Assembly (NCBI GenBank): GCA_022646745.1
Contig: CP060262.1
Span: 2,700,001-2,732,000, forward strand
DNA: 32,000 nt
Reading direction: 5' to 3'
Source of the DNA: Planctomycetales bacterium
GTDB lineage: Bacteria; 4484-113; JAFGCY01
The notes under the pieces were generated by a model. The model was not told the DNA's origin and ran no database searches. It saw only the letters and a program-made list of their open reading frames with translations. The translations under genes and the position numbers were made by a program. Shown here one piece after another: positions 24,801 through 27,800 of the stretch (within the stretch, counting starts at the first letter, position 1; each line of letters opens with the position of its first letter).

Positions 24801-27800
24801 ACGGGCAACCTCTATGAGGAAGTGACAGTCAAGCCGATCCGGCTCGAACTGGCGATCAACGCCCCCGGTGGTGGCGGTTCTGCTGACCCGCCGCCGACCG
24901 AGGACTTCTCCCTCAACTTCGAAGAGATCAAGGTCACCTACGGCGAAACTGACTCCATGCGCATGGATGGCAACGGCGGAGCAATCTACGTTTCCTGCTG
25001 GGCCAGCTTCAGTGGTGAGGGGAACGAATATCCCTATGGCCGGATCATCTATGGATCCGGTGCATCCATCCAGGCAAGGCTTGATGATGGTACGGATGTG
25101 CCCGCGACCATAGAAGACATCAGGGACAATGGTGGGTCTTCCCAGATCCTGATTGGCCTGCTGCTTCCCGCGGTGCAGAAGGTGCGTGACGCAGCTGCCC
25201 GCAGTGAATCTCTGCAGGTTGAGATCCGCTGGATGGCTCCTGAGTCAATGGGCCGCAGCAGCTCAAGCTGGGATCCGCTGGTGCTTGACCTCTCCGGTGA
25301 TGGCACCCGCAAGCAGGGTGACCCGGATGCCAACCGATACGACTTCGGCAATGACGGTGCCATCCAACCTGGAAGTGGCATCAGCCAGACCAGCCTTGAG
25401 AACATCGAAGTCCATTATGTGGTTCCGGGTGAAGATCACAGCGCCGGCGACGAACATGAGGTCGAGTTTGACATTTCAATGGGTGCCGTTCACGACCAGA
25501 ACTCCGGCATGAGCTTTGAGGACTTCGTTGCCCAGTTCGAAGATGGACGCTTCGTCCTGCGATCTGGTGTGCCTGCGGTACGCAGTGCGGATGGTGGATC
25601 AGATATCGAATCATCGGACTACGAGATCCTTACCGACAGGGAGAAGAACACTGTCTATCTGAACATCAAGATGACAAAGGTGATGGTCACAAGCTACCAG
25701 AGCAGCGGCAGTTCAGCGGGTGATTCCTCCAGTGTTGAGTTCCGGGGATCCCTGAGATATGTGTTCCCGTCCTTATCTGCAGCCGGCACCGGTAATCTAG
25801 CAGGAGAGATTGATATCAAGCCGATCCGGCTGGAGCCGAAGGCTGTAGCAAGTAGCGGTGGAGTTGGCGACAGCAGTGACGACAGTTCAATGGACAGCCT
25901 GAGCACCATGGATGCGATGGTTTCCGGCGGTGGCGACGGAAGTGGCGGTGGCGGCGGTGAACCCGTCGGGATGATCGAGGAGCGCAAGAAGTGCTTCACG
26001 AACCATTTCGACTGTGACCTGCGCCAGTCTTCGCCGTCCTTCACCAGCGGCGCGATTGAGGTTGAGCTCACGCTGGCTGACATGAACGGCGATGGCCTGT
26101 TTGATGAAGCCGACGCCCTGTTGCTTGCCGATATGCTCAGCCGCAACGTGCAGTGGGCTGCTTCCGGTGCCGACGGTTCAGTCGTTGACAATCCGGAGGA
26201 CTGGGGCATTTCCAACCCTGAGTGCGTGGTGTCCGATGTCAAGGTCAGCCCGCCGCAGATGGCCCAGCTGACACTGGTCCTGAACTGGACAGTCAACACG
26301 GAAGCAATGAAGCAGCAGCTCGCTGCCCGCAGGGGTGCGAACGAGAGTTCCGCGATCAGCACCCTTCGGACCGTGGTCTCCGCGAACACGATGTACTTGC
26401 AGGACGGCAGCAATGGTCCATACTATGGAATTGAATTGGCGATGGAGCCGCTGTGGCATGACGCTGACCTGAGCCGGGAGCTTATGGGCGATGGCGAAGG
26501 TGGCACACGCGCCCAGGATTACAATTCCTCCCGTTCAAATACCGACGGTATTGCCGGGCCGGGTGGTGACATTAATGACCAGGATGGCGACATTGAGATC
26601 AAGCTGCTGGACGCCCGTCTGGAGAACTGGCGTGACAATGATGATGACGATGATGGGGTATGCGACCTGGTCGTCGACTTCGAGATTGACAACAGTACGG
26701 GTGTACCGCTGGACGGTGCCTTCCGCTTCAGCAGCAGCCTGACGCTTCCGGATGGCAGCTCGGTACCCGGCGTGATTGAGTACCAGGACGGAAATGACCT
26801 GATCCTGCGCAAGCGCCCGGGCCGCACCAAGTACTCCAACATCACGCTCAAGCGTGGTTTCATAGATGATGGCACCCTGATTTCAGTGGTGGACTTCCAG
26901 CTTGACTACGATGGCAATGACGAACAGACCCGCGGCTGGATCACAGAAGTTGTCCAGGGAAAGGGCTGGAAGCGTACGCTGACGATCAAGGAAATCACGA
27001 AGGACGGTGGTGCAGGCAAGTTCTCCTCGATTGACAACGCATCTGAGGAGAAGGAGCGTGGCATCACCATCAACACGAGCCATGTGGAGTACCGTTCAGT
27101 ATCACCGAAGCTCGTGGACGGTGCACCTCCTGTGCTGGTCTTCAGTGATCTAGTGATTGACGTGGAAGAGAACTGGAAGTCCCCCAGCACCAATGGTGAA
27201 GGAGAAGTGGCTTACCAACTGGTGTTTGCCGACGGTTCAACTAGTCCTGGCAAGGTTGAATACCAGGACGGGGATGATCCCATCCTGCGGAAGAGACCCG
27301 GCCGGATCAAGTTCGGAACGGCTTCCGGTGGAGGTGCTATTGCTTCAGGTGCCACCGGTGGTCGCAGCAGTGGCAGCGAAAGTGCGATCATCGCCGTGCT
27401 GATCGGCCTGCTGCAGGATGGCAGCCAGGTCAGCACTGAGCTTGAGATCCCGATTGATGCTGAGACGGCACGCTGGTGGGTCAATAACAAGATGAAGGAC
27501 AGCGCTCGGGACAGCAGCGTATCCGGTGGAAACAGCGGTGATGGATCTGACCAGGGCTGGGGCGGTGGTCCGAGGATGGTTATATGGCCGCCTGTGGACC
27601 CAACCAGGACTCCCGCTCCCGCGGGCCCGGTCCCGATTCCCTATCCGAGTATTGCGGGTGGAAATGGTGGCGGTGAGGGAGTTTCCTTCACGATAGAGAT
27701 CACGGGTGCAGGTGAGGGCACGGATGTCGATAGTGCATGGGAGACCTGCTCTGGAGGATCCCTGAGCATTGAGATATCCGATAGCAGCACCGGTTCCGAC

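Follow-up and report, generated by a model that had tools for sequence, protein, structure and literature searches.

Why does a giant protein of a Planctomycetales bacterium contain a near-exact copy of the switch I region of EF-Tu? The copy lies in the 32,000 nt stretch of DNA analysed here (the window), within an ORF that is the largest in the host genome, a single contig of 4.11 Mb that is 93.5% complete. The initial annotation described the copy as an isolated peptide, located directly after a tail-tube segment, and proposed that it could be a decoy or mimic as this EF-Tu loop is a known target of proteases and toxins. The features identified within the giant ORF are listed in Table 1.

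Table 1. Features of the giant ORF, with their positions (nt) in the window
Feature	Position	Strand	Remarks
Giant acidic mosaic ORF, 5,096 aa	15789-31079	+	predicted beta-sandwich scaffold with about 49 borrowed words
Probable start and signal peptide	15840-15959	+	only hydrophobic stretch
Second tube family, other pieces	17514-17606, 17886-17954, about 18342, 24789-24854, 25755-25835	+	
Pilin-like word, six copies	within 17775-25205; starts 17775, 20253, 21075, 22314, 23226, 25152	+	synonymous variation
FG-GAP word	19326-19373	+	
Five partial Hcp matches	19971-20081, 20781-20918, 21591-21713, 22935-23063, 23724-23942	+	none covers the domain
Probable EF-Tu piece 3 (EF-Tu about 234-245)	20892-20927	+	10/12 to best donor, 5/12 to host
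DUF1559 C-terminal motif piece	23535-23609	+	PF07596, E 4.9e-8
EF-Tu piece 2 (EF-Tu 363-375, domain III)	23670-23708	+	12/13 to Fluviicola EF-Tu, 6/13 to host
Weaker second kinase piece	25206-25259	+	E 0.25
8-residue word, five copies	within 26517-29822; starts 26517, 28605, 28728, 28962, 29799	+	
gp19-like tube word	26769-26867	+	further copies 27249-27311, 29397-29468
CIS tube-protein piece	26937-27020	+	adjoins EF-Tu piece 1 without spacer
EF-Tu piece 1 (EF-Tu 46/47-69/70, switch I and following strand)	27021-27092	+	24 aa, Bacteroidota type
PAAR-like piece	27597-27656	+	PF13665, E 0.006
Long piece, second tube family	27687-27866	+	other pieces elsewhere, out of donor order
Tyrosine-kinase catalytic-loop piece	30408-30455	+	PF07714, E 8.7e-4
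VgrG/gp5 OB-domain piece	30729-30818	+	profile 46-75 of 75

An EF-Tu switch I piece in a giant acidic protein

Positions 27018-27095 (+ strand) encode 26 residues that are in frame with, and constitute residues 3744-3769 of, the giant protein. Residues 2-25 of this stretch align with EF-Tu 46-69 in solved structures (57 sequences with E<=0.001, the best 4.6e-8), and the 21-residue core has two mismatches relative to the printed chains 5we4, 5we6 and 7bbn, which we take to be E. coli EF-Tu. The translation, the 19/21 identity and the assignment to EF-Tu residues ~46-69 are therefore as initially annotated. The first of the 26 residues belongs to the adjoining tube-protein piece, and the last is not derived from EF-Tu.

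The only pieces of EF-Tu that map to the giant protein correspond to residues 47-70 and 363-375 and, probably, 234-245. Other host ORFs reach at most 7/13 for the second of these and 8/12 for the third. No piece corresponding to the P-loop (G1) or to G3-G4 of EF-Tu maps to the giant protein, consistent with the earlier observation that no P-loop precedes and no G3 follows the switch I peptide. Complete domains II and III in order are also absent, with only pieces of 12-13 residues present that are non-collinear and separated by 1,100-2,000 residues. On the sequence features tested, the giant protein is not an EF-Tu or other translational GTPase, and the switch I segment was correctly recognized as an isolated peptide, one that is moreover conserved in orthologues.

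The giant protein is acidic (D+E 17%, K+R 7%). It has an N-terminal hydrophobic stretch and no C-terminal membrane anchor, which suggests that it is exported. Pfam searches of the ORF returned fragments only (Hcp, gp19 tube, VgrG OB, DUF1559, FG-GAP, tyrosine kinase, PAAR-like and EF-Tu); when ten short segments of the window were searched, four had no family and a fifth had an unrelated family.

Authenticity and origin of the EF-Tu piece

The region was found in 20 sequencing runs from 8 studies, all of DNA, with no RNA run among those listed; 17 of the 20 are labelled as activated-sludge or wastewater metagenomes and 3 only as 'metagenome'. Two of the 20 may be the source sample. Four runs, from four studies other than the source, were placed on the window. 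All four span the left junction of the EF-Tu piece, and in two, from separate studies, both junctions are on one contig (X4, 26200-27745; X5, 26544-27180), so that the segment is present in independent sequencing data. It is also present in all six full-length orthologues (P0005-P0008, P0157 and the congener G001), shortened in P0008 by loss of its first third. Four of these orthologues have 43-96% identity and P0157 is a cluster member.

The piece matches the host tuf protein at 18/24 residues, as compared with 22-23/24 for EF-Tu of the Bacteroidota type, and the host tuf DNA at 78% of 64 nt, which argues against recent capture from the host gene. EF-Tu chimeras do exist in databases (11/14 matches inspected, with long EF-Tu parts in each), but the probability that an assembly chimera or chance accounts for the segment is negligible given the contigs that cross its junctions, the divergence of the orthologues, the low identity to host tuf DNA and, for chance, a match with E of about 1e-7. 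An assembly chimera or a copy of host tuf was accordingly ruled out by the junction-spanning contigs, orthologues and low host-tuf identity.

With the near-identical P0166 version as query, 15 of the 120 rows listed have organism names; 14 of these are Bacteroidota, by established taxonomy, and the remaining one is Ca. Doudnabacteria. The Bacteroidota rows include Crocinitomicaceae, Cesiribacter and Fluviicola. As the 81 full-length EF-Tus compared were picked by piece 1, its match of 22-23/24 to them is circular, and donor type is tested independently by pieces 2 and 3 alone. For piece 2, 36 of the 81 match at 12-13/13, whereas the host EF-Tu matches at 6/13.

The giant protein is a mosaic of borrowed words

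Segments of the giant protein that are shared with non-orthologous scaffolds and donor proteins are designated words. This marking identified 49 segments, containing 789 of 5,080 residues, as compared with 8 in the reversed protein. The words range from about 8 to 60 aa, and the proteins of other organisms from which they come are abundant or multi-copy. Seven matches to a single tube protein are scattered, out of order, across 3,400 residues. Profile coverage is at most 16-81 of 129 for Hcp, 24-77 of 134 for gp19 and 46-75 of 75 for the OB domain; there is no full-length Hcp, tube or VgrG domain in the giant protein, and no match to Hcp, gp19 or VgrG-OB in the host genome outside the giant ORF. 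The pilin-like word is presumably from a DUF1559/prepilin protein. Word sources, by family, are Bacteroidota-type EF-Tu, CIS tube, Hcp, VgrG, PAAR-like, DUF1559, FG-GAP and tyrosine-kinase proteins.

Copies of repeated words vary at synonymous sites, with switches between serine codon families included, as exemplified by the copies of the 8-residue word. A DNA-level motif or an RNA element was ruled out by this synonymous variation and by an Rfam search of the window that returned no match. The motif list of repeated words and the tube/Hcp library were both derived from the coding frame, which is a known bias. In five mosaic genes, or parts of genes, there are 163 EF-Tu 8-mers in the coding frames and 8 in the 25 other frames.

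The same words occur in unrelated scaffolds

Ten scaffold groups, assigned by eye and with real tube proteins as group J, share among them 318 exact 7-mers in 58 families, some of which are low-complexity or chance. There are 176 matches to these families in the giant protein versus 29 in the 2.48 M residues of other host ORFs. The EF-Tu switch I word is present in three scaffolds, namely the giant-protein family, an Rhs protein and, in G003, a protein with a FecR domain. Further carriers of the vocabulary are a Ca. Izimaplasma protein, RTX-like repeat proteins, an outer-membrane-like protein, an HU-derived protein and proteins on contigs L032 and L033 that we take, from their features, to be archaeal-looking and CPR-like, respectively. 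Relatives add pieces of HU and cold-shock proteins, and a second host lipoprotein carries a few words.

The host has a word-free, 733-aa orthologue of the 3,501-aa FecR protein of G003. These align at both ends, and the G003 protein has about 2,770 word-rich residues where the host protein has about 80, which indicates insertion of words into a pre-existing gene. The words are in the coding frame, out of donor order, added to pre-existing genes and recurrent in unrelated scaffolds. The presence of the same pieces in unrelated proteins of unrelated microbes points to an undescribed form of borrowing or mimicry.

One word was found in 4 of the 22 genomes of the class, in two genera and in different scaffolds. 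With another query, 6 of 399 genomes matched, 3 convincingly and 3 weakly, the latter unconfirmed as mosaics on inspection. A metagenome scan returned 447 pattern matches, of which 2 were confirmed, and a GTDB scan returned one ordinary tube gene and nothing else. In viral contigs, 272 and 8 pattern matches gave no confirmed relatives; one 259-aa query had no match in plasmids and phages, which does not show absence; and the ESM Atlas had no usable match. The words in P0095 and L032 come after a C-terminal hydrophobic helix, are probably cytoplasmic and make up almost the entire tail. P0144 also looks cytoplasmic, and surface display of the words is therefore not universal.

Conservation of the words

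EF-Tu piece 1 differs from its counterpart in G001 by 7 synonymous and 1 non-synonymous codons in 25 codons, and its mean identity in the six-sequence alignment (A1) is 0.88 as compared with 0.42-0.57 for the flanking scaffold. Judged from these codons, the EF-Tu word is conserved as amino acids and not as DNA. This constraint is not absolute, as the window copy has one substitution relative to the donor consensus and part of the piece is lost in P0008. Part of the word DNA has counterparts in community contigs with 88% identity (6 differences in 51 nt), which is as close as G001, so that the word could be refreshed from outside DNA.

Using word masks that include proteins found with a window query, a known bias, amino-acid identity to G001 is 0.75 for words (n=193) versus 0.61 for scaffold (n=804; p=3e-4). 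Divergence at four-fold sites is 0.49 versus 0.55, treated as equal, with synonymous sites near saturation. Against G002, the values are 0.73 (n=82) and 0.69 (n=412; p=0.51), with no extra conservation of the words. Related mosaic proteins together contain at least seven segments of EF-Tu (about 2-26, 39-75, 73-89, 161-184, 264-282, 313-330 and 362-376). Captured segments have identities of 0.90 versus 0.87 for the rest of EF-Tu within donors, and 0.69 versus 0.67 against the host, and lineage-specific segments (40-46% identity to host) are likewise retained.

Predicted structure

An AlphaFold2 model of 26556-27488, based on 6 sequences (mean pLDDT 61, pTM 0.40), has two beta-sandwich domains, with the tube word as a hairpin. 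The EF-Tu piece begins as a low-confidence linker (first half, pLDDT below 50), and its second half forms the opening strand of the domain that follows. With low confidence, the scaffold may therefore be a chain of beta-sandwich domains in which the EF-Tu word provides a flexible inter-domain linker and a strand. In this model, words occupy positions of compatible secondary structure. Foldseek returned only generic matches to tandem beta-sandwiches (Ig-like and adhesin domains), none with a TM score above 0.25.

Possible origins and roles of the words

The EF-Tu segment belongs to a vocabulary of foreign peptides that is shared between proteins. The reading we favour, which we consider about as probable as a coin toss (~50%), is that this vocabulary is a heritable library kept as a mimic or decoy. 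Words could enter genes by microhomology-guided short-patch recombination, mostly as copies from other mosaic genes, which would explain why each word has one fixed variant. They might then be retained, the least certain of these steps, by fooling or soaking up the peptide-reading machinery of other organisms. Candidate readers are the receptors, proteases and toxins of predators, competitors and grazers that normally engage the source proteins, and the giant protein would constitute an exported library of mimics or decoys. There is no single receptor known to read this many unrelated peptides, and the absence of extra word conservation against G002, the cytoplasmic carriers and the low-confidence model also count against such a library. 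A more far-reaching proposal, which we regard as decidedly doubtful, is of a dedicated process, common to many bacterial and archaeal lineages, by which in-frame fragments from abundant proteins of neighbours are written into a cell's own genes. The result would be a heritable library of peptides, comparable at the protein level to CRISPR spacers, with which predators and competitors could be imitated or disarmed. This would imply an undescribed, widespread peptide-reading, self/non-self system on the other side.

The main alternative is that the words are products of a near-neutral sequence drive, with abundant DNA or RNA fragments from the community captured, and refreshed, at microhomologies in weakly constrained genes. 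Selection would then only purge inserts that break the frame or misfold, and apparent conservation would mirror that of the donors. This would accommodate donors that are abundant or multi-copy families, the pile-up of other organisms' contigs at word positions with >=85% DNA identity, the lack of extra conservation of words against G002, the compatible secondary structure at word sites in the model and the patchy distribution of words (4/22 class genomes; 6/399 genomes, 3 weak). There is also a documented route, SPDIR (short-patch double illegitimate recombination), in which, according to the accessible part of the report, short foreign DNA is inserted at microhomologies (10.1101/2023.11.22.568220). 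SPDIR is a plausible entry route for words but, as described there, is a rare, undirected mutation that alone would not give a fixed, in-frame vocabulary across phyla. A near-neutral drive is unlikely, although it deserves real weight, as a single Bacteroidota variant has become fixed in three unrelated scaffolds despite host tuf being the nearest donor, divergence at four-fold sites is no higher in words than in scaffold, serine codon-family switches keep the residue, lineage-specific EF-Tu segments are kept too and off-frame captures are almost absent. It is quite improbable that the words represent structural reuse, as ready-folded strands and calcium sites, or poisoning of weapons, with dominant-negative pieces of tube, Hcp, VgrG and PAAR proteins that obstruct injection machines, whether incoming or neighbouring. 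Many of the words do come from CIS components, the tube word is modelled as a hairpin and the latter half of the EF-Tu word as a strand, and the host has no Hcp, gp19 or VgrG-OB matches elsewhere, but the EF-Tu, HU, cold-shock and kinase words, the tails of P0095 and L032 that are almost wholly words, and the conservation of the disordered linker half would all be left unexplained.

The proposal of a decoy or mimic remains plausible in part, as the peptide is isolated, conserved and neither a GTPase, a chimera nor a recent copy of host tuf. The further suggestion, that this loop was chosen as a known target of toxins and proteases, is not sustained. The initial annotation places the Lit cleavage site within RGITI of EF-Tu. 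Lit and Avs7 belong to the context of EF-Tu-targeting defence (10.64898/2026.01.04.697583, accessible part), and the type IV Thoeris caspase cuts cellular EF-Tu at R59 and is described as promiscuous (10.1101/2024.10.24.620036, accessible part). The EF-Tu piece covers the loop cut by these proteases and contains the caspase cleavage-site sequence (EF-Tu 46-69 includes R59). In favour of a loop that diverts Lit-like or caspase-like proteases, kinases or toxins from EF-Tu are the arginine equivalent to R59 (10.1101/2024.10.24.620036), located in the model at the end of an unstructured linker, and the strong conservation of the piece. We nevertheless consider an EF-Tu-specific decoy highly improbable. 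The piece is one of at least seven EF-Tu segments in the mosaics, which overall are no more conserved than the rest of EF-Tu, and the window protein has two or three EF-Tu pieces among about 49 words from unrelated families. It is also of foreign rather than self type, and the probable signal peptide would part it from cytoplasmic effectors, whereas in the accessible accounts Lit, the type IV Thoeris caspase and Avs7 are concerned with the cell's own, full-length, cytoplasmic EF-Tu and do not cover the other words. A caspase that is reported to be promiscuous at arginine (10.1101/2024.10.24.620036) would not select for 24 exact residues. In the accessible texts of both reports (10.1101/2024.10.24.620036; 10.64898/2026.01.04.697583), there is no mention of a large exported protein with a decoy fragment.

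Relationship to known systems

T6SS Hcp, VgrG and PAAR proteins and eCIS tubes are the source of many of the words, and databases label orthologues of the giant protein as 'Hcp'. This label is a mis-annotation; unlike these systems, the giant protein has only fragments, scattered out of order, in a genome with no other Hcp, tube or VgrG. The bait region of alpha-2-macroglobulin is an array of baits, and elf18 and csp22 are PAMP peptides. The idea of a bait array is similar, and relatives contain the N-terminus of EF-Tu and an N-terminal piece of a cold-shock protein, but the words span many non-PAMP segments and families, and no alpha-2-macroglobulin Pfam family was found in the giant ORF at E<=1. 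CRISPR spacer arrays and diversity-generating retroelements provide, respectively, a heritable foreign record and sequence written into genes. The mosaic record differs in being in-frame peptide within protein genes, and the host genome has no match to reverse transcriptase (PF00078), for which the control was positive in 3 of 14 genomes. On the features tested, the giant protein is outside the EF-Tu, Hcp/tube/VgrG, diversity-generating retroelement and alpha-2-macroglobulin families. No description of foreign-peptide mosaics was found in searches of the open literature.

If selection maintains a fixed set of foreign peptides in unrelated proteins across phyla, this would imply either an undescribed recognition system that reads short EF-Tu, HU, pilin, injection-tube and kinase peptides in microbial communities, or an undescribed sub-gene transfer process by which proteins are assembled from parts of other proteins. 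In either case, this would amount to a new mode of protein evolution; the EF-Tu segment alone is much less noteworthy. As the words are short and enumerable, and there are word-free orthologous scaffolds to serve as controls, these possibilities are directly testable. The mosaic organization also explains a class of mis-annotations, the giant 'Hcp' proteins.

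Word junctions and variation at the DNA level

Adjacent words, the short foreign-type peptides carried by the giant protein and by other mosaics, often share 1-4 overlapping residues where they meet, as seen by eye in the database proteins P0166, P0087 and P0154 and in genome G003. These overlaps suggest that words may be united by microhomology. Within the EF-Tu piece of the giant protein, a single substitution at window position 27042 departs from the donor consensus, from the orthologue P0005 and from the congener G001, and is apparently recent. At the word positions 26778-26854 and 27026-27091 of the window, tube and tuf contigs from other organisms pile up with at least 85% DNA identity.

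Word carriers beyond the giant protein

A few shared words are also present in a second host protein, encoded outside the window by a 474-aa lipoprotein-like ORF (G000:C1:2080112-2081533, minus strand), the C-terminal end of which is the pilin-like word. The host FecR/cohesin-like gene (G000:C1:2460156-2462354, plus strand) is without words; its orthologue in the compared genomes G003 and G006 (compared locus, L019:7521-18023) is expanded about five-fold, with words. G003 also encodes two neighbouring small secreted helical proteins (L027:1165-2055 and 2339-3052) with words at their termini.

Words occur, in addition, in proteins of other apparent lineages. Two archaeal-looking surface proteins (L032:3018-5441 and P0095, residues 745-1105) have a word tail behind a membrane helix, and these tails are probably cytoplasmic. 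A secreted protein that looks CPR-like (L033:1731-2513) has at least four words. In P0022 and P0065, kinase, eCIS-core or VgrG-like words lie inside apparently genuine tube proteins. Long EF-Tu fusions or duplications are also present among the database proteins (P0158-P0165, P0167-P0169 and P0172); these are probably mis-assemblies.

Other genes in the window

Other genes of the window and beyond its ClpP-like gene, labelled by eye
Feature	Window position	Strand
Three tandem paralogous proteins, HTH + TPR regulator-like	3-3517	+
Large lipoprotein-like ORF, dockerin-like motifs	5873-7753	-
Large lipoprotein-like ORF, dockerin-like motifs and repeated modules	9266-12727	+
ClpP-like gene	31221-31814	+
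Transketolase, then metallophosphoesterase	beyond the ClpP-like gene	

Genes labelled by eye as transketolase and metallophosphoesterase are also located downstream of the giant-protein orthologue in both G001 and a further compared genome, G002.
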